A DNA stretch of 64,000 nucleotides, taken from positions 736,001-800,000 of the forward strand of contig CAVSTP010000003.1 of the NCBI GenBank assembly GCA_963730935.1, written 5' to 3'. The DNA is from an uncultured Nitrospiraceae bacterium. Lineage in GTDB: Bacteria > Nitrospirota > Nitrospiria > Nitrospirales > Nitrospiraceae. The stretch's first letter is position 1, and every line of letters begins with the position of its first letter. The notes beneath the pieces were generated by a model that was given only the letters and a program-made list of their open reading frames with translations, did no database searches and was not told the DNA's origin. A program made the position numbers and the translations under genes. This document shows, piece by piece, positions 13,415-28,223 of the stretch.

Positions 13415-14848
13415 ATGGGACAACTCATTCCCTTGGATTCGTTCGGGGTCACAGAGCATGACGTGCTGGAGGCCTTGGGGCGAGTGAAGGTCCGCGACGT
13501 GGATTACGCGGACCTCTACTTCGAATCCTGCATTTCGGAATCCGTCTCGATGGAAGAATCGCTCGTGAAGCGAGCGACGAAGAGTATTTCTCAGGGGGTG
13601 GGGGTACGCGCCACCGCCGGAGAAAAAACCGGTTTTGCCTACTCCGATGATCTGACCCGACGCGACCTCGAACTCGCCGCCGATACGGCCCGGTATATCG
13701 CCAACTCACCAGGAGGGTCCCAGCCTGTCCCTGTCCCGGTCCATTCCAGGCCGGCAAGAGATCTCTACCCGGTCCCCCACGAACAAGCGGATGTCGCCAC
13801 GGCGGACCGCGTCGCGCTGTTGAACCGCATCGATGCGGAGGCGAGACGTTATGACCCTCGCATCAAAAATGTCATGGCCTCTTTTAATACGGAATACAAG
13901 ATTGTGATGGTGGCGACATCGGACGGCACGTTGATCGGCGACGTGCAGCCCCTGTCCCGCTTGCAAGTGACCTGTATTGCCGAGGATGGTGGAAATCGCC
14001 AGATCGGATCCTTTGGCGGAGGCGGTCGCATCGGCTTCGACTTTTACCGCCAAGGGGACCGTTATCTCAATTACGCAAAGGAGGCCGCCCGTATTGCGAT
14101 TCTCAACCTGTCAGCGGTCGATGCGCCGGCTGGCGTCATGCCGGTTGTTCTAGGGGGCGGGTGGCCTGGAATTCTTTTGCACGAAGCGATCGGCCATGGA
14201 CTCGAAGCGGATTTCAACCGGAAAAAGACCTCTGCCTTCTCGAATCTTCTGGGTAAACGAGTCGCCTCCGATGTCTGTACGATCGTGGACGACGGCACAT
14301 TGCCGGACCGGCGCGGATCGCTCAACATGGATGACGAAGGCACGGCGACCGCTCGTACCACGCTCATCGAGAAAGGGATCTTGCGCGGCTATATCACCGA
14401 CAAGTTGAATGCGCGTCTCCTGGGCATTCCTCTGACAGGGAATGGAAGGCGAGAAAGCTATCAGAGCATCGTCCTGCCTCGCATGACGAATACGTTCATG
14501 CTGGCCGGGGAGTCGAATCCAGAGGACATCATTAAATCGGTCAACAGGGGTCTCTACGCCGTGTCGTTCGGAGGAGGCCAGGTCGATATCACGAACGGCA
14601 AGTTTGTGTTCTCGGCCAGCGAAGCGTATTTGATCGAAGACGGAAAGGTGACCAAACCGGTCAAAGGAGCAACATTGATTGGGAGCGGGCCGGATATTCT
14701 GACGAAGGTCTCGATGGTCGGCCATGATTTGAAGCTGGACGAGGGCATCGGGACCTGCGGTAAGGAAGGACAATCCGTGCCGGTCGGCGTCGGATTGCCG
14801 ACGATACGAATCGATGAAATTACCGTCGGCGGCACCCAGGCGGGATGA
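13415..14848 (+). CDS. tldD: Metalloprotease TldD
   Basis: HEAIGHGLEAD, PRMTNT, CGKEGQ motifs. Confidence 0.95.
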   Translation: MGQLIPLDSFGVTEHDVLEALGRVKVRDVDYADLYFESCISESVSMEESLVKRATKSISQGVGVRATAGEKTGFAYSDDLTRRDLELAADTARYIANSPGGSQPVPVPVHSRPARDLYPVPHEQADVATADRVALLNRIDAEARRYDPRIKNVMASFNTEYKIVMVATSDGTLIGDVQPLSRLQVTCIAEDGGNRQIGSFGGGGRIGFDFYRQGDRYLNYAKEAARIAILNLSAVDAPAGVMPVVLGGGWPGILLHEAIGHGLEADFNRKKTSAFSNLLGKRVASDVCTIVDDGTLPDRRGSLNMDDEGTATARTTLIEKGILRGYITDKLNARLLGIPLTGNGRRESYQSIVLPRMTNTFMLAGESNPEDIIKSVNRGLYAVSFGGGQVDITNGKFVFSASEAYLIEDGKVTKPVKGATLIGSGPDILTKVSMVGHDLKLDEGIGTCGKEGQSVPVGVGLPTIRIDEITVGGTQAG

Positions 14849-14861
14849 AGGACGAATCACC

Positions 14862-16250
14862 ATGAGTGAAACACGAGAGCCTAGTCGATCACTCCAGCCG
14901 ACAAACGGCCATCTGTCGCAACTGGCCTCTGACGTGCTCGCCATGGCCAAGAAACATGGCGCGACGGAAGCCGACGTGGTCGTGGCCGACGGCGAAAATC
15001 TCTCCGTTCAAATCCGTCTGGGATCTGTCGATCGGCTTTCAAAGGCTCGGGAAAAACGGTTGGGGCTGCGCATTTTCGTCGGCAAGCGGTCCGCCACCTC
15101 GTCCACCTCTGACTTTTCATCTGAATCCCTACGACGGCTGGTGTCGGAAACCTGTACGCTGGCCAAGGCTGTCGTCGAAGATCCCGTCTCCGGCTTGCCC
15201 GGCACTGATCAACTGGCGACGGACCAACCGGACCTCGATCTGCATGACGAGACCCGGCTGGATACGGATCGACAGATCGATTTGGCCAAGCGGGCGGAGG
15301 CCGCGGCATTGGCCAGCGACGACCGCATTACCAACTCAGAAGGAGCAGATTTCGACTCTTCCTGGGGGCGTGTAGTGCTGGGGAACAGCCACGGATTTAT
15401 CGGAGACTACCGCAGTTCCAGCTATTCGCTGGCCGTGTCGCCGATCGCCGTCGATCCGGTCTCAGGCAGTATGCAACGCGATGCATGGTACGACGTGCGG
15501 CGAAAATTTCACAAGCTCGACGCGCCGGAGGCCATTGGCCGTGAAGCCGCCAAGCGGACGGTCAGACGGTTGGGCGCACGCAAAGTGGGGACCAAACGGG
15601 TGCCGGTCGTGTTCGATCAGGAAACTGCCGGGAGCCTGCTCGGCAATTTGTGCAGCGCTGTGTCGGGGTATGCCCTCTATAAAGGGGCATCCTTTCTGGG
15701 TGGACAGTTGGGAAAACGGCTGGCACCCGACTGGTTCAGCGTGTATGACGATGGCCGGATAGTCGGGGGACTTGGCTCGCGCCCGTTCGATGGGGAAGGA
15801 CTGCCGACGAGAAAAAACACGGTCGTCGACAAGGGGGTGCTCACCAGCTATCTGCTTGATACCTATTCCGGGAAAAAGTTGGGATTGCCATCGAGCGGCA
15901 ATGCCTCAAGAAGCGTGGGAGAAAGTCCCTCGGTCGGTCCGACGAATTTCTACCTCACTCCTGGGACCTGCTCGCCGGAGGACATGATCCGCGGTATCAA
16001 GGACGGCCTGTACGTAACGGAACTGATCGGCTTCGGGATCAATATGGTGACCGGAGACTATTCCCGGGGGGCAGGCGGATTTTGGATCGAAAATGGTGAA
16101 CTGGCCTATCCAGTGGAGGAAATTACCATCGCGGGGAACTTGAAACAGATGTTCCGCGACATCGAAATTGTCGGCAGTGATCTCGTCTTCCGAGGGCGGA
16201 TTGCCAGTCCGACCTTGAAGATCGCGGAAATGATGGTGGCGGGGGATTGA
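14862..16250 (+). CDS. pmbA: TldE/PmbA protease partner
   Basis: FDGEG, TGDYSRGA, EITIAGNL motifs; adjacent to tldD. Confidence 0.93.
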   Translation: MSETREPSRSLQPTNGHLSQLASDVLAMAKKHGATEADVVVADGENLSVQIRLGSVDRLSKAREKRLGLRIFVGKRSATSSTSDFSSESLRRLVSETCTLAKAVVEDPVSGLPGTDQLATDQPDLDLHDETRLDTDRQIDLAKRAEAAALASDDRITNSEGADFDSSWGRVVLGNSHGFIGDYRSSSYSLAVSPIAVDPVSGSMQRDAWYDVRRKFHKLDAPEAIGREAAKRTVRRLGARKVGTKRVPVVFDQETAGSLLGNLCSAVSGYALYKGASFLGGQLGKRLAPDWFSVYDDGRIVGGLGSRPFDGEGLPTRKNTVVDKGVLTSYLLDTYSGKKLGLPSSGNASRSVGESPSVGPTNFYLTPGTCSPEDMIRGIKDGLYVTELIGFGINMVTGDYSRGAGGFWIENGELAYPVEEITIAGNLKQMFRDIEIVGSDLVFRGRIASPTLKIAEMMVAGD

Positions 16251-16345
16251 CGGGGAGACCTCCATATCTGTATCGGGCGCTGCGAGCCGCGACGCTGACT
16301 GCGGCCATGACGGCGATGGCCGTTTCAACCCGAGGGGAGGGCAAC

Positions 16346-16810
16346 ATGCGGATTGTCTCAACCGCGTTCACCCATGAGGGTGCGATCCCTTCGCTCTATA
16401 CCTGTGAAGGCAACGATGTGTCTCCCCCCCTCTCCTGGTCGGAGGTCCCGCCGGGGACGAAGAGTTTGGCCCTGATCGTCGATGATCCGGACGCTCCCGA
16501 TCCGGCCGCGCCGAAAATGACCTGGGTGCATTGGGTCCTTTATAATTTGCCGCCGAAGAGTGACGGACTGCCTGAAAGCGCGAAGCCGCTGCCGGTGGGA
16601 ACTAAGGAAGGCATGAACGATTGGAAGCGCACGGGCTACGGAGGACCATGTCCGCCGATCGGTCGCCACCGGTATTTCCACAAGCTGTATGCGTTGGATA
16701 CCGTGCTGCCGGATCTGAAACAGCCGACCAAGGGGAAGCTCGAAGAGGCCATGAAGGGCCACATTCTTAGCGAAGCCCGTTTGATGGGGACCTATCAGAA
16801 GACCAAATAA
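16346..16810 (+). CDS. YbhB/YbcL (PEBP/RKIP-like) protein, cytoplasmic type
   Basis: DPDAP, HW, GPCPP, HRY motifs; GGAGG RBS before ATG 16346; no signal peptide. Confidence 0.9.
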   Translation: MRIVSTAFTHEGAIPSLYTCEGNDVSPPLSWSEVPPGTKSLALIVDDPDAPDPAAPKMTWVHWVLYNLPPKSDGLPESAKPLPVGTKEGMNDWKRTGYGGPCPPIGRHRYFHKLYALDTVLPDLKQPTKGKLEEAMKGHILSEARLMGTYQKTK

Positions 16811-16858
16811 ATCAGCCAACAGGCATTGAACAGCGGCCAGGAGAAGAGAGGAGAACGT

Positions 16859-17413
16859 ATGCGACGGGCATGGAGCGTGGTCCTGACACTACTTGTGCTT
16901 CCGAGTCTAGCGGCGGCAGCCGATTTTCGGTTGACGAGTCCGACCGTGAAAGATAAGGGCATCATCAGCAACGAACATGTCTTCAACGGGTTTGGATGCA
17001 ACGGCAACAACATTTCGCCCGAACTGCGGTGGGAGCGAGCGCCGAAAGGCACAAAGAGCTTTGCGGTGACGGTCTATGATCCCGACGCGCCGACGGGAAG
17101 CGGATGGTGGCATTGGGTGATCTTCAATATGCCTCCGGAGACCACGTCCTTACCGGCAGGCGCCGGCAAACCTGAGGGCGGAGGAGCGCCGCAAGGCAGC
17201 GTCCAATCCATGACGGATTTCGGTCAGCCGGGTTACGGCGGGCCCTGTCCGCCTCCGGGGGATAAGCCGCATCGGTACATCTTTACGCTGTACGCGCTGA
17301 AGCTGGATCAATTGCCTTTGCAGAAGGAGGCGTCGGGTGCGATGGTGGGCTACTACCTGAATCAGAATAAGTTGGCAAAAGCCTCGTTCACGGCGAAGTA
17401 CGGTCGGAAATAA
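16859..17413 (+). CDS. YbhB/YbcL (PEBP/RKIP-like) protein, exported type
   Basis: Signal peptide; DPDAPTGSGWWHW and GPCPP motifs. Confidence 0.9.
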   Translation: MRRAWSVVLTLLVLPSLAAAADFRLTSPTVKDKGIISNEHVFNGFGCNGNNISPELRWERAPKGTKSFAVTVYDPDAPTGSGWWHWVIFNMPPETTSLPAGAGKPEGGGAPQGSVQSMTDFGQPGYGGPCPPPGDKPHRYIFTLYALKLDQLPLQKEASGAMVGYYLNQNKLAKASFTAKYGRK

Positions 17414-17475: not shown

Positions 17476-17934
17476 ATGCCGCTTGATACCGAACTCGGAA
17501 AGAAAATGCTGCAGCTCGTGACGTCACGGTATGACGATCGGCATTGGCGCAAGAAGATCGAAAAGACGTTGAGCCTGCCTCAGTCGGGTGTCAGCGACCC
17601 CATTCAACAGCAGATCTTCATGTATCTCAAGGTCGGGCTGAAAGCCTACAAGTCCCGACGCGCTGATCCGGACTCCTGGATTATTGGCGGCTTTGCCACC
17701 AAGGAAGTGATCGAGCGGGCGAAATACCAGCCGAAACAAGTTGGAGCCGACCTCACCAAGGATGATGTCGCGTTTCTGGGCACCGATCCGGGTAGTGACA
17801 TAGATGAGGTCTGGTGGGATGAGATGCTGGTCCAGTGGTTCGACGTGCCGGAGGAAGAGAAGCCCGCCAACGAAGACGAGGTAGTCGCTCATGAGGATCC
17901 CGCCGTCGTAAGACCTCCTGAATCACCCAACTAA
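17476..17934 (+). CDS. Hypothetical protein
   Basis: GGAGG RBS, natural composition, acidic tail; no recognised domain. Confidence 0.7.
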   Translation: MPLDTELGKKMLQLVTSRYDDRHWRKKIEKTLSLPQSGVSDPIQQQIFMYLKVGLKAYKSRRADPDSWIIGGFATKEVIERAKYQPKQVGADLTKDDVAFLGTDPGSDIDEVWWDEMLVQWFDVPEEEKPANEDEVVAHEDPAVVRPPESPN

Positions 17935-17972
17935 GCCTCGCTCGCTCAATCCTGTAAACTCGCAAAGAGGTT

Positions 17973-18178
17973 GGCCGCGTCTCGCGACGGCCGCTTCCGC
18001 CAGCGCCTGCTGGCTCGCCGTTACGCTCAGTCACACTTGGCACAGAAACTAGTTCCGTTCAGACCGTTTGTCGAACGGAACGTCAAACATCTATGCCATC
18101 CGCGAAGCGCGGCCAGCGCGACTTCGCTACGGCGAGAAACGCGGCGCTGATGCGTGCGTCAGCCCGCGCGACGCGGCC
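17973..18178. ncRNA. Structured non-coding element A (long hairpin with conserved core)
   Basis: 17973-17986 pairs with 18165-18178, 18014-18021 with 18129-18136, GTTCCGTTC/GAACGGAAC apical stem; core homologous to element B. Confidence 0.5.
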
Positions 18179-18307
18179 TTGATGAAAACGGGCAGCAAGC
18201 TCGGTAGGATCTTTTGTGGCAGTTGTGTCTCGATTCATCCGGTCATCGGCGGCCACGATCCTCGTGAGCGACTTGAGGAAGGGAACAGCTCTCTTCTCGC
18301 GGGGTGA

Positions 18308-18492
18308 GGATAGTTGGGACTCCGGCGACTTGCGATGGGTGGCATAGCCCTGTCGCCGCGGGCGCCGAAGGCGATGGCGAGCATTGTTCGAAGTTCCGTT
18401 CGGATGCAATCCGGAACGGAACAAGTTGCGGAGCCAAGTGGCGACAGGCTATGCGGTCTAACCCATCGCTGAAGCCGGGTTCTCAACTATCC
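18308..18492. ncRNA. Structured non-coding element B (inverted homologue of A)
   Basis: GGATAGTTG/CAACTATCC, GCGATGGGT/ACCCATCGC, GCATAGCC/GGCTATGC, CTGTCGCC/GGCGACAG, GTTCCGTTC/GAACGGAAC stems. Confidence 0.55.
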
Positions 18493-19131
18493 GAACAAAT
18501 CCATCTGGGCGGGATTGGGCGGTTCGATGGTGAGAACCGGGGCGGCGGGTGCGGCAGCTTCAGTCTCAGCAGACTGTTGCGTGTGCCGGTCGAGGAAGTC
18601 CTTCAGTTTCTTGAAATCCTCCTTCAACGTATCGAGCAGGTTGCCCTGGTGTAAGGCGGCTGCCGGATGCAGGAGGGGGAAAATGACGAAGTCCTTCATA
18701 TAGAAGGCCTGCGCCTTGACCTTGGTAATCCCGACTTTCCTCTCCAACAGTGTCTGGGTGGCCCAGTTGCCCAGCGTGCACACCAGCTTGGGCCGGATCA
18801 TCTGGATTTGTTGCATCAGGAACGGCTTGCAGGTGTCCACTTCATCAGGTTCCGGATCGCGGTTGTTCGGGGGCCGGCACTTGATGACGTTCGCGATGTA
18901 GATCTGGTCGCGCGATAGATTCGCCGAGGCCAGCAGATCGTTCAGGAGTTTTCCCGCTGCACCCACGAACGGCTCGCCCTTTTGGTCTTCGTTGAATCCG
19001 GGCGCCTCGCCGACGAACATGATGCTCGCATGCGGATTCCCTACGCCGAACACCACCTGGGTTCGGCCCAGCTTCGCGAGTTTGCACTGCTGACAGTTGT
19101 GAAGTGATTTGGCGAGTTCTTGAAGCGTCAT
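18487..19131 (-). CDS. Family 4 uracil-DNA glycosylase (Fe-S)
   Basis: Cxx[22 protein letters not shown] motifs. Confidence 0.93.
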
Positions 19132-19212: not shown

Positions 19213-20523
19213 CTAGAGACCCAAGGGCTGCAGAATGATCTCTGCGCATCGTTCGCCGCTGACAATGGCGCTTTCCAGATTGGCCGGCCAACCGGTGTCT
19301 GTCCAGGCTCCAGCGAGGAGCAGATTGCGAATGGGACTCCGCTGAAGCGGGCGTCGGACTTTCGTGCCGGGTGGTAGTGCCAACCAGGCATGGGCTCGGT
19401 CTTCTTGTCGGAATCCCGTGATCTGACGGTCCGGTTGAAGCAAGTTGAGCGATCGAAGCAGCGTGGAGACTCGCTGGACGGGCTCCGTGACCGCTTGATC
19501 CTGCGGCATCGTCACGGTCGCGACCAGGCCGCGATCGAATTGCGACGGCTTACACGCAATCCAATTAAACGGGCCGGAGCCCATCAGGATATGACGGGGA
19601 CTCGTCATCGGTTCCCCCGTCCGAACTTGCAAGACAGTGGGGGAGAAGGTCTCAAGGTCGACGATTTGCTGGAAATAGGCGTAGCGGCTGAGCCACCGTT
19701 CCGGCAACAAGCCCGTCAGCCCACGAGGTGGCAAGGCCGCGACATACCAATCGGCTTGAAGAGAGGTTCCATCGTTGACGCGCAGCCCGGTGATCCGATC
19801 GTCATGATACTCGAAGCCCACAGCAGGCATTCCCGCACACACCATGGCCTGTGCCTTTGCAAGGGCATCCGTCACCGGCTGCACGAACGCCCGGTCCCAG
19901 GCTTGGCTGGGAACCCAGATACGGCTGTCCGCCGCATGTGAGAGAAAGAACGGCTTCAACGCCATGACCAACGCATCCGCCGAGAGGTGGTGCAGATCGT
20001 TGCCGGTCAGCCAGCGGGCGAGCGGAGCCCAAATGGTCTGTCGGGATGACGGGCTATGGGAGAGCGAGTCAAGCCAACTCTCCGCTGTGCGCTGTTCGAG
20101 ATCGACCGGCAACTCGACCGACCCTTCCCAAAGCTGTTCCAGCCAGGAAAGCAGTTTCCACCGTTCGCCTGCTCGAAGGCCTGAAAAACGACCGATCGTC
20201 AGGAGTTGCTGAATGGGAGTTGGGAAACGCGTTTTTGGATAGCGGACCACTCGACCGCTTGGGAGCAGGAATTCCAACTGGGCTTCGGCGAAGCATGGCT
20301 GATCCGGCCGAAGACCGAGCGCATCCAGGAGTGCCCAGGTTGCTCCATGACAACCCAGGATGCTGGTCGGCGGATCGCTTTCGCGTCGCAGATGTTCGCC
20401 GATCCGAGCAGATGGAGTGAGCACAGTGACCCGAAGGCCGCCCAGTGCCAGCCGATAGGCAGCGGTCAGTCCCGCCGGTCCGGCGCCAAGCACAATTACC
20501 GATTGGCGGCCATCCGGCGTCAC
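19213..20523 (-). CDS. hpnE: HpnE-like hydroxysqualene dehydroxylase / FAD oxidoreductase
   Basis: GAGPAG, C-terminal LAGAWTDTGWPANLESAIVSG; GTG start overlaps the hpnD stop (GTGA). Confidence 0.75.
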   Translation of the reverse strand: MTPDGRQSVIVLGAGPAGLTAAYRLALGGLRVTVLTPSARIGEHLRRESDPPTSILGCHGATWALLDALGLRPDQPCFAEAQLEFLLPSGRVVRYPKTRFPTPIQQLLTIGRFSGLRAGERWKLLSWLEQLWEGSVELPVDLEQRTAESWLDSLSHSPSSRQTIWAPLARWLTGNDLHHLSADALVMALKPFFLSHAADSRIWVPSQAWDRAFVQPVTDALAKAQAMVCAGMPAVGFEYHDDRITGLRVNDGTSLQADWYVAALPPRGLTGLLPERWLSRYAYFQQIVDLETFSPTVLQVRTGEPMTSPRHILMGSGPFNWIACKPSQFDRGLVATVTMPQDQAVTEPVQRVSTLLRSLNLLQPDRQITGFRQEDRAHAWLALPPGTKVRRPLQRSPIRNLLLAGAWTDTGWPANLESAIVSGERCAEIILQPLGL

Positions 20524-21386
20524 GAGAATTTCGAGCGAAGCCACACGCCGCCGGCAATGGCCAACCGATGAGAGGTCGATAGGCGGACCCGCGGGCCGAA
20601 AACCGCATGATCGGGACGTTCAATGCGTTCCAGGATCCGGGAGTAGACGGCCCTCATGATTTCAGCGACGGTCAGCGCACGGCGATCTTTCGACGGCAGG
20701 GAAGCGAGCGCAGCCCGGGCCTTTGCATAGTAGGCCCTCGCCCTTTGCGCTTCGAAACGGACCAATTCGTGATGGCGGGGGTTCTCTTTCCGCTCCAGGA
20801 ATTCCGCTTCACTGCAACCGAATTGTGCCAAATCCTCGTGAGGAAGGTAGATGCGGCCCTGTTCGGCATCGGTCGCCAGGTCGCGGAGAATGTTGGTGAG
20901 CTGAAAGGCCATTCCGAGATCCACCGCATAGTCCTGTGCATGGGCCGAAGTCGAACCGAAAATGTGCAGACAGATCAGACCGACGATCGAGGCGACACGG
21001 TAACAATACAGCGATAATTCTTCGAAGGTACTATAACGCGTTGTCGCCAGATCCATTTCGACGCCCTTGATGAGTTCCTCGAAGTAGGCCTTCGGGATTG
21101 AAAGCCGCTTGGCATGATGCGCCAGGCTGATCATGAGCGGCCATGTGGGTTCACCGGCATAGACCAAGTCAAGTTCGGAGCGCCAGCGACGAAGCTCTTC
21201 CTTGGGGTCGCTCCCGGGCGGCGGCTCGTCGACGGCGCTATCCACCGCTTTGCAAAAGGCGTAGACGGTGTACATCGCCTCGCGCCGGGCCTTCGGCAAG
21301 AACATGAACGAATAATAGAAGTTGCTTCCGCTTTGTTTTGTGAGATTGGTGCAGTATGCCTGAGCCTCCGCAGACGTCATGGTCAT
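20520..21386 (-). CDS. hpnD: Presqualene diphosphate synthase (squalene/phytoene synthase family)
   Basis: SNFYYSF, YAFC, YCYRVAS, QLTNILRD motifs; paired with hpnE. Confidence 0.85.
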   Translation of the reverse strand: MTMTSAEAQAYCTNLTKQSGSNFYYSFMFLPKARREAMYTVYAFCKAVDSAVDEPPPGSDPKEELRRWRSELDLVYAGEPTWPLMISLAHHAKRLSIPKAYFEELIKGVEMDLATTRYSTFEELSLYCYRVASIVGLICLHIFGSTSAHAQDYAVDLGMAFQLTNILRDLATDAEQGRIYLPHEDLAQFGCSEAEFLERKENPRHHELVRFEAQRARAYYAKARAALASLPSKDRRALTVAEIMRAVYSRILERIERPDHAVFGPRVRLSTSHRLAIAGGVWLRSKFS

Positions 21387-22321
21387 CTCGATTGACCTGT
21401 GAGACATACGCTGCCCGTCAAATCGCGAACGGCATCGTTCGGGCGGTCGGCATGCACCGTTCCGGTACAGATGTCGGCCATCAGCTCCACGCCGTCCACG
21501 AGACGAGGACCGGGACGACTGAAGTATGAGCCGGCATCGACAACATAGGTTTTGGCGGCGGAGAGCAGAAGACGCGAGGAAGCCGAATCCTCCCGGCAGA
21601 GAACGGTCAGTTCAGAGACGGTGCGGGCCAGCGAAAATCCGCAAGGCATGACGATGAGAATGTCGGGCGCCGCGTCTCGCACTTCTTCCATGGTGACTTG
21701 CCGGGAGGGCTCGCCGGCATGTCCTAGTACATCGAGCCCCCCGGCGGCGTCCACCATTTCTGGAATCCAGTGTCCGCCCACATACAGAGGGCTCAGCCAC
21801 TCGAGGCAGACGATGCGTGGCCGTGGTTGTTGCGTCGATCTCTCGCGAACGGCGGCCATCCGGCTCCGGAGCGAACCCGCAAGGTTGCGTCCACGCAAAT
21901 CCACCCCCAGTGCGGCTCCGATACGTTCGACATCGTTGATCACATCGGTGAGCGAATGGGGAGCGAGCGTCAGGAGCTGCGGTTTCCGGGGCAGCGATTC
22001 CATGGCGCGCTCGAGCTCATGCGGCGTCACTGCGCACACGTGACAGACGTCTTGGGTCAGAATGATGTCGGGCCGCGCCTCAGCCAAGGCCCGCTCATCC
22101 ACGCGATACAGCGGTTGTCCCGACGACGTCAGCGCCTTGACTTGGCGGTCGATCTCGGCGCTGTCCGTGCCGTCCGAATCGACAATGGGGCGCACCATGA
22201 GCGGAACACCGCGGACGGCCGGTGGATAATCGCACTCGTGGCTGATCCCGACGAGCGAGTCGGCCAACTCGAGCGCCATGACGACCTCGGTTGCGCCCGG
22301 CACGAGCGAGCAGATTCGCAT
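21383..22321 (-). CDS. BtuF/TroA-like (cobalamin-binding family) protein lacking a signal peptide
   Basis: MRICSLVPGATE, HECDYP, TQDVCHVC, GHWIPEM, FSRPGPRL. Confidence 0.8.
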   Translation of the reverse strand: MRICSLVPGATEVVMALELADSLVGISHECDYPPAVRGVPLMVRPIVDSDGTDSAEIDRQVKALTSSGQPLYRVDERALAEARPDIILTQDVCHVCAVTPHELERAMESLPRKPQLLTLAPHSLTDVINDVERIGAALGVDLRGRNLAGSLRSRMAAVRERSTQQPRPRIVCLEWLSPLYVGGHWIPEMVDAAGGLDVLGHAGEPSRQVTMEEVRDAAPDILIVMPCGFSLARTVSELTVLCREDSASSRLLLSAAKTYVVDAGSYFSRPGPRLVDGVELMADICTGTVHADRPNDAVRDLTGSVCLTGQSR

Positions 22322-22333
22322 ATCAGCGTCCTC

Positions 22334-23023
22334 TCATGCGGCCGGCCAGAGACGTGTGCGCAGCTCTTTGAGATCGGTCTCCAGGAGGCTATTCGTGATG
22401 GCATGAGCCTCGTGCAGGTCCTGAACGGTGTGCGTGTTTGTCACTGCCAACACCTTCATGCCGGCGGTTCGTGCACCGCGTACTCCAGGTAGCGAATCTT
22501 CGATCACCAGGCACGAGGACGGGATGAGACCGGCGTCGTGTTGCTGGAGCGCTTTCAACGCCAGGAGAAACGGCTGTGGGTCAGGTTTGCCTCTGGTCAC
22601 GTCTTCCGCGCTGGTGATGTGCAGAAATGCTGGTCTGAGACCGGCGGTATCTAGAATGTACTCAATTTCATGCCGCAACGCGCCGGACGCAATGGCCAGA
22701 GGGTAGGTGTGGGCAGCCTCACGGACGAACTCGGGGACACCGGGAAAGATCACCTGATGGTGCCTGACTGATTCCAGGTATGCCTCGGCTTTCCGCTTCA
22801 TCAGACGCCCGACAACGGCGGCGTCGGCAGGACGATGATTCGCTGCCAGCGCGGCCAGAATACAGCCGCGGTCGTCATATCCGAGGTAGTCGGCGTAGTA
22901 TTCCGCTTCAGTCAGTTCGATGCCGATTTCTTTGAGCGTTTGGCACAGGCCGGCATAATGCAACGGCTCTGTGTTGGCAATGACGCCGTCGAAATCGAAA
23001 ATGAGAGCTTGAAGTGTCGACAT
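22334..23023 (-). CDS. HAD-superfamily phosphatase (beta-PGM/CbbY-like)
   Basis: FDFDGV, KPDP, IEDS motifs. Confidence 0.9.
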   Translation of the reverse strand: MSTLQALIFDFDGVIANTEPLHYAGLCQTLKEIGIELTEAEYYADYLGYDDRGCILAALAANHRPADAAVVGRLMKRKAEAYLESVRHHQVIFPGVPEFVREAAHTYPLAIASGALRHEIEYILDTAGLRPAFLHITSAEDVTRGKPDPQPFLLALKALQQHDAGLIPSSCLVIEDSLPGVRGARTAGMKVLAVTNTHTVQDLHEAHAITNSLLETDLKELRTRLWPAA

Positions 23024-23113
23024 AGAAACGACGGGAAGATCATGTTGGAAGTTTCGGCGCGGATTATAGCACAGGGGTCACAAAAAGAAGGCGGACCAAC
23101 GCAGTCGTAGGCT

Positions 23114-23764
23114 TTAGAACTTCAATCGCAGCCGCTTTTCCGGGATCCAGCCCTTGACGCCGTCGTCCGTCCGAACCGAGTAGACCCAGCCGCTCGGTTG
23201 GAGATCGCCGTCGAGCACGCTCAATGTGACGCCGGGACGGACCACAGGACCCGGCTTCACACCCGCGGGGTCCAGAGAGAGCGGAATCGTTTCGCCTGGA
23301 GCGGTCGGATTCCCGATCGCGGTCACCTTTTGCCCTTCGGCAAACATTGGAGAAGCAACAGCGGATGCCGGTGCTGTCGGAGCCATCGCTGGAGCGGTCG
23401 CAGAAGGAGGCATCGGCGCGGTCGGAGTACCTGAAGGAGCTGTTTCGGAAGGGGTCGGTGGCGTTACCGGAGCTGTGGAAGCGGGCGGAGGAGCCGTCGG
23501 TGGCGCAGTCCTTGGTTTTGTCGCCGTCGCGTGCGGTTCAGGCAGATTGTCACCCGTAAAGGGAGCCAGCCAGTCCGCGAGTTGTTCCGGTTCCATGGCG
23601 AGGTAGCCGATCCCTGCGACCAAGAGGAGGAGGAAGATCCACAGCAGCGGTCGTCCGCCACGCGATTTCTTTCCGGACTTCATGGAAGAGGCAGGTTTGG
23701 TGGCAGTCGTCTGATCCAGTTCCTCTTCAGTAAACTCCAAATCCGGCTCCGGTTGACGGGCCAT
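23114..23764 (-). CDS. Single-pass membrane protein with Pro/Ala/Thr linker and C-terminal SH3b-like domain
   Basis: TM helix, low-complexity linker, GWVYSVRTDDGVKGWI. Confidence 0.65.
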   Translation of the reverse strand: MARQPEPDLEFTEEELDQTTATKPASSMKSGKKSRGGRPLLWIFLLLLVAGIGYLAMEPEQLADWLAPFTGDNLPEPHATATKPRTAPPTAPPPASTAPVTPPTPSETAPSGTPTAPMPPSATAPAMAPTAPASAVASPMFAEGQKVTAIGNPTAPGETIPLSLDPAGVKPGPVVRPGVTLSVLDGDLQPSGWVYSVRTDDGVKGWIPEKRLRLKF

Positions 23765-23853
23765 CGAATACCTCCAAACTAACGATAGAAGCTTGTCTTA
23801 TCACCATCCCCCCTGAGAGTCAATTTTCCCTTTGAAAATGCCGCGAGTCGCGA

Positions 23854-25626
23854 TCAGCAGGGTTGTGCGGGAGAGCAGGACAGGACCTGAGCTTCACGGC
23901 TGCCGCTGCGAAAGACCGTCAAGCCCTTACACCCCAGCTCATAGGCCAGGAGAAATGCATCGGCCACGTCTGCCTTGGTGGCGGACGATGGCAAATTGAT
24001 CGTTTTTGACACGCCGCTGTCGCTGAGGCGCTGAAAGACGGCCTGCATGCGAACATGTTGCTGCGGCGGGACGTCGTGTGCGGTGACAAAGAGCCGGCGG
24101 ATCTCTTGCGGAATACGTGCGATATTCTGAATGGAGGGGCTCGCTGACAGCTCATTCCGAAGCGTATCGAGGGTAAGGCCGTGCGCGCGGATCATGCGCG
24201 CAAAAGCCGGGTGGACCATCGTCAGTTCCAGGTCTTCCAGAGCCCGGCGCAGAATGCGCACTCCATACAGCGGTTCAATGCCGGGCGAACAGCCTGCGAT
24301 GAGACTGATCGTTCCCGTTGGCGCGATGGTAGTCACCGTGGCATTGCGCCGTCGCTCGTGGCGGGCTTCAAGCTGGCTTCCACGGTAGGCTGGGAAGAGC
24401 CCTCGCTCCAAAGCGAGTTGGCGTGAGGCGTCGTGAGCACGCGTCTGGACAAACGACATCAGCGTGGTCGCCTGGGCAATGGCGGCGTCGGTATCATAGG
24501 GGATGTGCAGGGCAATCAACAAATCGGCGAATCCCATGATCCCAAGTCCAATCTTTCGCGTCCGTAGTGTAGCGGTTTCGATGTCCTTGAGCGGGTAGTG
24601 GTTGCGATCAATCACATTGTCCAGGAAGCGGACAGCCAGGCCGATCGTTTCCTCGAGCCTCGCATAATCGATGGTTGCCGTGCCGCCGGTACGCAGGACG
24701 AACTTCGAGACATCGATGGATCCGAGGGTGCAGGATTCGTACGACAGCAGCGGTTGTTCGCCGCAGGGGTTCGTGGCTTCGATGTTCCCTAGCCGGGGCG
24801 TCGGATTGGCCGCGTTGATCCGGTCCAGATAGATGACACCTGGCTCTCCCGTGGCCCAGGCGGCCTCCGCCAGCCGATCAAACACCATCTGGGCTGGCAG
24901 CCGCCTGACCGCTTTTCCGGTGCGCGGATTAATGAGGCCATAGCGCCGCCCACGTTCGAGGGCACGCATGAAGTCCGGCGTGATCCCGACCGACAGATTG
25001 AAGTTGGTCATTTCAGCCGGATCCTGCTTCAACCCGATGAATTCTAGAATGTCGGGATGATCCACACGTAAAATGCCCATGTTGGCTCCGCGCCGTGTGC
25101 CACCCTGTTTGATGACGTCCGTGGCCATGTTGAAAATGCGCATGAACGACACGGGGCCGGAAGCGATGCCATGCGTAGAGGCCACGAGGTCGTCGTGTGG
25201 GCGAAGCCGACTGAACGAAAATCCCGTCCCGCCTCCCGACTGGTGGATCAGCGCCTGCTGCTTCACCGCATCGAGGATGGAACTCAGCGAGTCTTCGACC
25301 GGCAGGACGAAGCAGGCAGCCAATTGTTGCAGGGGACGTCCGGCGTTCATGAGTGTCGGCGAATTGGGGAGAAATTCCAGGCGTGCCATGCATTCGTAAA
25401 ACCGTTGTGCGGCGCCGGCAAGGCGCGTTGAGCCCGGATAGAGCTGTTCGGCTTGTGCGACGTCAGTGGCAATGCGCCAGAACAATTGCGGGATCGTTTC
25501 CGTGACGACGCCGTGGTGATTCTTGATGAGGTATCGCCGCCGAAGCACGACCTTCGCTTCGGGCGACAACCGCGGGACGGGCCTGGAAGGGGGCGCCGTC
25601 GACCGGACAGAGCGGGGAGAACGCAT
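23854..25626 (-). CDS. nrdJ: Adenosylcobalamin-dependent (class II) ribonucleotide reductase, compact form
   Basis: [42 protein letters not shown] motifs. Confidence 0.9.
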
Positions 25627-28020: not shown

Positions 28021-28223
28021 ATGAACATGGCAATTTCTCACCCGCCCGCCCAGGCGAACTAGTTTTTCACCCTCCCACCCACCGATTGCTTTGCAATCGT
28101 TATCCCGCGGCGCGCCTCACCCAAGCATCGTTCTCGCTTCTTCGCTCCCTGCGACGTACCTAAAACTGTACGCCTCGGGGGCTCAGTCGCCCGGACCTTA
28201 CGGGAACCCATTTTGATCATCCT
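28021..28223. mobile_element. MITE-like dispersed repeat, copy 1
   Basis: TCACCCGCCC motif, CGATTGC-TTT-GCAATCG hairpin, right end CATTTTGATCATCCT matching the copy 3 TIR. Confidence 0.65.

Follow-up and report, generated by a model that had tools for sequence, protein, structure and literature searches.

REPIN-like hairpins behind stop codons in Nitrospiraceae, a self-nesting non-coding family that may move as single-stranded DNA

The 552-nt gap that separates the stop codons of a 152-aa gene (TAA) and a uracil-DNA glycosylase (UDG) gene (TAG), in the 64,000-nt stretch of an uncultured Nitrospiraceae genome analysed here (the window), contains two inverted hairpins, A and B, which are two of 38 dispersed copies of one family in the source genome. 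The best reading of this family is a REPIN-like, Nitrospiraceae-specific non-coding hairpin that is partly under constraint. We put at slightly better than even, roughly 0.55, the probability that A and B are copies of a non-autonomous single-stranded DNA element mobilized in trans, by an enzyme of the HUH type or one with a comparable specificity for structure, acting at the conserved loop of resident hairpins, with gene conversion spreading the tips. The unit is asymmetric, folds on one strand, lies behind stop codons, nests by replacing the tips of older hairpins and makes no target duplication. No published description of the family was found in the literature searched, with subscription papers and supplements outside its scope, and ‘undescribed’ is accordingly used in a provisional sense.

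The 152-aa gene (17476–17934, plus strand) has no assigned function and no Pfam family, and is conserved in the genus, with a match in 30 of 32 genomes; the UDG superfamily gene (18487–19131, minus strand, 214 aa) matches PF03167 with an E-value of 9e-36. The genes further out, at 13415–17413 and 19213–25626, are ordinary neighbours: a TldD/PmbA pair, two PEBP-family genes, a squalene/phytoene synthase and oxidoreductase pair, and a ribonucleotide reductase. Hairpin A occupies 17973–18178 on the minus strand, with outer arms at 17973–17986 and 18165–18178, and hairpin B occupies 18308–18492 on the plus strand, with outer arms at 18308–18326 and 18474–18492. The first-pass annotation had described the two as homologous, covarying structured elements; their positions and outer arms were confirmed, and the core strings match at 23 of the first 27 positions. 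The core covariance model scores A at 70.5 bits (18022–18132) and B at 104.2 bits (18343–18452), and orthologues are 77–87% identical to A and, behind UDG, 81–87% identical to B. The outer stem of B overlaps the last codon and stop of UDG by 6 nt, and B has no clear leader of the kind that precedes A (see below).

Folded as RNA, A gave −125.6 (z −7.1) on the minus strand against −109.7 (z −5.4) on the plus strand, and B gave −114.7 (z −8.9) on the plus strand against −94.4 (z −7.8) on the minus strand; none of 200 shuffles folded as well, for either element on either strand. These energies and the wobble bias agree with the earlier view that A folds better on the minus strand and B on the plus strand. 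The absence of a match to known RNA families also held, because tRNA and tmRNA scans were empty and Rfam 15 gave no covariance-model match at the gathering score and, by E-value, chance-level matches only. No sigma-70-like promoter or terminator consensus was found in the gap, or specifically between A and B, and RNA contigs from four runs, which carry no strand, end or level information, cover the gap patchily. The proposal of two divergently transcribed ncRNA genes (a decoy, a ribozyme or a 6S-like RNA) is not supported in view of the 38 copies, the turnover of sites, the self-nesting, the lack of a promoter between the two and the DNA-type loops.

In the core, read in the orientation of B, a stem leads to a three-way junction that bears a side hairpin. 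A further helix follows, then a conserved asymmetric loop in which TGTYYGA faces nAGTT, a helix of 9 bp and, past a bulge, the small hairpin of the tip. The 9-bp helix and tip lie at 18052–18081 (minus strand) in A, flanked in the alignment by the conserved unpaired TGTYYGA and nAGTT, and at 18393–18422 (plus strand) in B, where the tip is a GCA triloop and the loop is GCA, GAA or GTA in seven of eight orthologues. The covariation and three-way junction first noticed between A and B extend to 92 homologues, in which the junction, core helix, bulge and tip hairpin are all kept. Over these 92 rows 87.2% of cells are paired, against 74.8% when shuffled and 26–42% when slid, with 98.9% pairing in the core helix, and 22 of the 27 pairs have changes on both sides; part of the invariance seen in columns comes from the search pattern and the anchoring regex with which the rows were collected. 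Wobbles of the G.T type outnumber A.C by 132 to 53 overall and by 42 to 3 in the core helix, and the B-orientation strand is the better fold in 29 of the 38 copies of the source genome. Only one strand has the working fold: it adjoins the stop codon of a gene and lies antisense to that gene. Among the 38 copies the outer stems differ and the tip is conserved.

The 38 copies were collected with an iterated profile, for which the best E-value in a reversed-genome control was 0.18, and 17 of them cluster within 155 kb (G000:C4:1382027-1536765) among accessory and storage genes. Two more back-to-back inverted pairs like A and B occur, after secA (G000:C2:196283-196787) and near a PhzF gene (C4:788599-788854). 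The further homologues that a covariance model was expected to reveal were found both in the source genome and in its relatives: the core model was positive in 113 of 150 Nitrospiraceae genomes, which represent 31 of 33 genera and have from one to 25 or more matches each; the remaining 37 had none, nor did any of 127 genomes that belong to the phylum's other families. When species genomes were scanned with a pattern, at least 116 matches were obtained, 113 of them, by record title, from Nitrospira, Nitrospiraceae or Nitrospirota. The other three (L095, L184 and L179) are not titled Nitrospirota; the 2-kb record L095 has proteins in common with Nitrospira loci and was probably assigned to the wrong bin. 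Viral contigs, phages and plasmids contained no match to the family. Other repeats are present in the same intergenic DNA, with at least eight further families of 10–15 copies each in the source genome, none of those probed being found in the window. A distinct REP-like module, CTCACCCGCCC... with the palindrome GACGCG, stands alone in the window at 28036–28130, 34230, 37743 and 42790; it has 28 matches in the genome against none in the control, and in at least nine copies of the hairpin family it interrupts the loop of the side hairpin.

The neighbours of the copies are ordinary genes, such as sucC, secA, purC, tenA, glnE, moaB and a DEAD-box helicase gene. Thirty-seven of the 38 copies could be scored for stop codons (one could not be anchored): the 3′ side faces an opposite-strand stop in 24 of them, compared with a background of 43% (p 0.005; genes called by a home-made program). 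For 18 copies this stop lies 60–90 nt after the AGT motif, at the end of the stem, a distance at which no start codon was found. In relatives the 3′ side faces 85 stops and 31 starts, against 58 of each on the other side, the rows not being independent. The opposite orientation of A and B is a consequence of this arrangement, because each copy sits antisense behind its own gene. No replication-strand bias was apparent (about 20 versus 18, by hand count in a six-contig assembly).

In 23 relatives with both gene ends, the orthologous gap ranges from 37 to 1061 nt, is 61 nt or shorter in five and holds the core in 10; filled, empty and nested states all occur at this site, and B is absent from many close relatives. 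At seven other UDG loci, two of them from another genus, B is 81–87% identical over approximately 172 nt, whereas third positions of UDG at the measured loci are only 46–59% identical. This excess over the neutral value speaks most strongly against the family being selfish DNA and nothing more, and means that B is under constraint or is repeatedly exchanged at such sites. The ends of purC, tenA, secA, purQ and glnE also carry copies across genera. Toxin–antitoxin and defence genes (RelE-HTH, ParE, nSTAND3, PIN, AbiJ and an RT) lie directly beside copies at L153/L154, L108, L147, L151, L085 and L148; at L154 a RelE-HTH pair is found between two near-identical copies. The L154 locus also has a separate MITE with CTAG ends. 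Such frequent neighbours are compatible with either insertion hot spots or cassette traffic. At L103 and L122 a Fic-family gene behind glnE is accompanied by another hairpin and by a duplicate, now decayed, of the 3′ end of glnE, which suggests integration of a circle at the gene end.

A third hairpin, C, which is degenerate and was overlooked in the first reading of the gap, encloses A. Its 3′ arm (17883–17964) and 5′ arm (18218–18273), both on the minus strand, were recognized as an inverted repeat and by comparison with relatives, three of which (L053, L075 and L079) carry C intact; its kinship to the A/B core is weak (model E-values 0.07–0.7), and it is a degenerate relative or a member of a sister family. 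Together, C and A fold as one rod (−199 on the minus strand against −188 on the plus strand). Unit A is complete, running from 18217 to 17965 on the minus strand, and consists of a leader (18181–18217) with an AT-rich start, a small hairpin and a pyrimidine tract, then the hairpin, and finally a pyrimidine-rich 3′ tail (17965–17972), read from the sequence and similar to the tails of other units; it replaced about 64 nt of the tip of C. The last 17 codons and the stop of the 152-aa gene (17883–17934) are the 3′ arm of C, and since relatives of this gene have a different C-terminus, in some cases with C after the stop, the repeat rewrote the end of the protein.

The leader, in the form of a TAYAN-ATG start, a small hairpin and pyrimidines, precedes many copies; it has 31 matches in the genome, against one in the reversed control, and is the common 5′ end of several Nitrospira hairpin families. 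An abundant sister family under the same leader, of about 100 nt and with a shorter tip, nests in up to several layers (metagenome loci L308–L430; G000:C1:137147, C4:1444725) and is missed by the core model. Among 310 distinct leaders, 75 are preceded by the 5′ arm of an older hairpin that has been cut, in most cases shortly after the junction, and 53 by the cut 5′ arm of the sister family. Fourteen stranded 3′ arms, counted after two of 16 rows had been dropped as intact copies, begin within approximately 9 nt of the AGTT motif, several with one common junction, and nests with mirror-matched arms are present in the source genome. Tip replacement was seen directly in a relative, approximately 94% identical, that keeps the outer arms of copy e38 and has three nested layers as its tip. 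No inverted leader partner was found within 600 nt of any of 208 leaders, nor were terminal inverted repeats found, and 18 of 19 simple leader-bearing sister units show no target duplication (0–3 nt common across the ends). Junctions are imprecise, host sequence is deleted and what is seen in relatives is a replacement rather than a clean insertion. Nested and non-nested units have the same AT-rich 5 nt ahead of the leader, which so look templated, and the idea of an untemplated junction was dropped. An origin of the 5′ arm as a guide copied out of the gene was also set aside, because the overlap between B and UDG is just 6 nt and the arm is close in sequence to the family consensus. Tandem repeats of a 7-nt unit are often found immediately ahead of a leader (L086, L145, L321 and G000:C4:674320).

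Among the 92 rows 70 tip loops are triloops, 33 are c-GNA-g and three are c-GNA-g on the other strand, and none is GNRA or UNCG. The side hairpin loops include 17 c-GNA-g, three GNRA and two UNCG, and no c-GNA-g loop was present in 143 control 3′ hairpins after stop codons. All four middle bases occur in the GNA tips, across 13 stem contexts; these loop counts are not independent, 15 of 31 sharing one stem context. The tip of A itself is a 5-nt loop without the GNA signature. GNA mini-hairpins are described in PMC13037366 as extraordinarily stable as DNA, the RNA forms being far less so. Because c-GNA-g triloops are common and GNRA and UNCG tips absent, we infer from this sequence signature that the selected, folded form is probably single-stranded DNA, which lends support to a folded single-stranded DNA recognition site, the last of the alternatives offered in the first-pass annotation.

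The search for an enzyme that might move the element gave, in the source genome, one Y1 protein with TIRYT-type ends (the end motif being that of PMC6006769), 13 tyrosine-recombinase matches and one GIY-YIG match, the last in a 603-aa frame that is probably UvrC. No RT, IS110, DUF559 or IntI exceeded the cut-off there, and no Y2 was found, in a search whose control also gave no match; the Y2 family did match in another search. No transposase was recognized by eye among the multi-copy proteins listed. The hairpin element or leader was beside none of 24 Y1 loci and none of 11 RT loci, and one of 30 RAYT-like loci had a convincing repeat link, in a screen that covers the best-scoring loci and that divergent HUH proteins could escape. 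Consistent links to Y1, RT, Y2, IS110 or RAYT-like loci were not found in relatives. Among 212 neighbouring proteins compared with Pfam (131 + 81) there was no partner enzyme, and the IS3, IS66, one RT and one HNH among them were not tied to the element; a further set of 69 neighbours was compared with NCBIfam. RTs occur in nine of 33 genus genomes, none of them beside the hairpin element, and at L469 an IS110 lies 2.3 kb from a copy, with no motif beside the IS110. A 225-aa Y1 transposase at L051:4430-5180 lies between GGGGACAG-type inverted repeats (TIRYT), whose end motif occurs in 13–14 intergenic regions.

IntI exceeded the cut-off in 16 of 151 genomes. The leader or hairpins were seen by eye near five of 25 integron-integrase genes, and a loose motif scan had 60 false positives in 400, so that enrichment near integrases is not demonstrated by it. 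None of 16 extended integrase loci contains a hairpin array; there, many genes are followed by an ordinary GTTAG-type site. Many Nitrospiraceae integron integrases (L431–L455) are extended at the N terminus, and their genes are followed approximately 170 nt downstream by a GTTAG-type site, like reverse integrons, with almost no attC nearby in a crude scan.

In the mechanism that we propose, a trans-acting enzyme, for which our best guess is an HUH/Y1-type nuclease, would recognize the leader and the conserved loop-plus-helix, nick a resident hairpin near the conserved loop and join in the new unit. New units would thereby replace older tips, giving rods nested like Russian dolls, and gene conversion between copies would spread both tips and nests. 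Some old copies, such as B behind UDG, might then be kept under constraint, as preferred sites of re-insertion or as hairpins that affect the mRNA at the stop. The occurrence of a fixed core within unrelated but paired outer stems would be accounted for, because the outer stems would be older layers. Several observations count against a single-stranded DNA element: the absence of a partner enzyme beside the loci examined; the absence of the lagging-strand-template bias of IS200/IS605 (about 20 versus 18 here); the imprecise, host-deleting junctions, unlike clean HUH strand transfer; and the non-independent loop counts, the 5-nt loop of A and the leader's own wobble, which favours the strand opposite to the hairpin fold.

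The hairpin works most like a REPIN. In the accounts of PMC3116915 and PMC6006769, REPIN–RAYT systems share with it an extragenic, multi-copy and lineage-restricted occurrence, a long imperfect hairpin with compensatory changes, a 5′-tailed asymmetric form and long persistence, the asymmetric intermediate with a 5′ tail and the compensatory changes being those described in PMC3116915. However, REPINs as presented there conserve two ends and vary in the middle, whereas the Nitrospira hairpin conserves the tip and varies the outer stem, has no REP doublet and no linked RAYT that we could find, and nests by tip replacement. With its conserved tip and without a cognate RAYT, it is not a member of the REPINs.

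The attC sites of integrons have box sequences, RYYYAAC/GTTRRRY, at the base of the stem, and it is their bottom strand, antisense to the upstream gene, that folds. The Nitrospira hairpin likewise folds antisense to the upstream gene, adjoining its stop, but RYYYAAC/GTTRRRY at the stem base is not conserved in the 38 copies. As attC sites are portrayed in PMC9024848, the likeness extends to a sequence-variable, structure-conserved hairpin right after a stop, with toxin–antitoxin and defence genes nearby; the Nitrospira hairpin differs in having no R/L boxes, arrays or tie to IntI and in sitting behind housekeeping genes, and the part of PMC9024848 that bears on the phylum gives only two CALINs, in one genome. 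With ERIC/IRU and related MITEs, as outlined in PMC3184786, it has in common a palindrome of 100–200 nt, a location at gene 3′ ends and a TA-rich start, but it has neither terminal inverted repeats nor a target duplication, and has a one-strand fold and a branched tip. The phage G4 origin, ssiA and the N4 vRNAP promoters also present c-GNA-g triloops on a folded single strand, according to PMC13037366, but they are single functional sites on phages or plasmids, where the Nitrospira hairpin has no match. Finally, 6S RNA, ribozymes, riboswitches and other Rfam families are similar in their rod-like fold, conserved internal loop and three-way junction; the Nitrospira hairpin, in contrast, is multi-copy and dispensable and has no gathering-score match.

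Several other explanations have to be weighed against these data. We think it unlikely, although a serious possibility, that the family is a multi-copy structured RNA, transcribed from the leader side antisense to the gene end as a decoy, antisense regulator or catalytic RNA, or else a hairpin of the mRNA at the stop. Such an RNA would fit the one-strand wobble bias and strong covariation, the invariant unpaired strands (in part a product of row selection), the AT-rich bases before the leader and the pyrimidines after the stem, and the copies kept across genera at the ends of UDG and of the five genes named above; for the mRNA version, PMC12306157 cites earlier work in which REP hairpins within 15 nt of the stop reportedly stall ribosomes. 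It is hard to reconcile, however, with the lack of GNRA and UNCG tips in all 92 rows, a copy number of 1 to 25 or more with 37 of 150 family genomes unmatched and empty sites in close relatives, a conserved tip that is repeatedly destroyed by nesting, the missing promoter consensus between A and B, and an mRNA strand that is the worse-folding one. Old conserved copies such as B may nevertheless have a role as RNA. A retro-element resembling a SINE, in which an RT copies RNA of the folding strand, using a nick in a resident hairpin as its primer, so that the 3′ junction is fixed, the 5′ junction ragged and target sequence deleted, has a slim chance of being correct: the asymmetric head–body–tail unit, the deletion without duplication and the 14 3′ remnants that start some 9 nt or less from the AGTT motif, several sharing one junction, are as expected, but the source genome has no RT, the RTs of nine of 33 genus genomes are not beside the element, the AT-rich 5 nt before the leader look templated, and the would-be RNA strand carries DNA-type loops.

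It seems doubtful that the copies are dispersed attC-like landing pads, at whose folded bottom strand a recombinase would insert accessory cassettes behind core genes. The folding strand, antisense to the upstream gene, is that of attC, runs of gene–element–gene–element with toxin–antitoxin and defence genes occur at glnE, secA, UDG and other sites, and there are the five integron-integrase genes with leader or hairpins nearby; yet the stem base has no attC box and the tip is conserved instead, IntI exceeds the cut-off in few genomes and not in the source genome, the integrase loci have ordinary GTTAG-type sites in place of hairpin arrays, and the cargo at glnE brings a duplicated gene end, which points to homologous integration. 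A classical cut-and-paste MITE of the ERIC or Correia type, bounded by terminal inverted repeats and duplicating TA or YTAR at its target, is very improbable and largely refuted. The leader does start with a TAYAN word, and ERIC-type elements, in PMC3184786, have TA at both ends and sit at gene 3′ ends, but an inverted leader was found for none of 208 leaders, 18 of 19 units have no duplication, the outer stems differ between copies and the host tip is deleted. Insertion into YTAR was seen neither at B nor in the sister units examined for duplication. The first-pass annotation had named high copy number with target-site duplication as the mark of a MITE; the high copy number is there, whereas the duplication was not seen. 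Returning to a single-stranded DNA element, a bolder version is quite unlikely but worth stating, namely a new mobile class in which an enzyme swaps and stacks modules at the bottom-strand loop, the long-lived hairpins behind core genes being self-renewing landing pads for units and for toxin–antitoxin and defence genes. If true, this would be an integron-like platform across Nitrospiraceae with a different chemistry.

The family illustrates that a covarying intergenic fold of Rfam quality can be a DNA element, and the occurrence of GNA triloops as opposed to GNRA or UNCG loops offers a cheap test for sorting such candidates. If it is passive repeat DNA only, it is one more lineage-specific palindrome family. 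Its tip-conserved, self-nesting and duplication-free design lies outside the rules of REPINs, MITEs and attC sites, so that the missing enzyme could be a new nuclease or recombinase specific for single-stranded DNA structures, and, in a nitrifier family of worldwide importance, the hairpins shape both the ends of genes and the hot spots of insertion.
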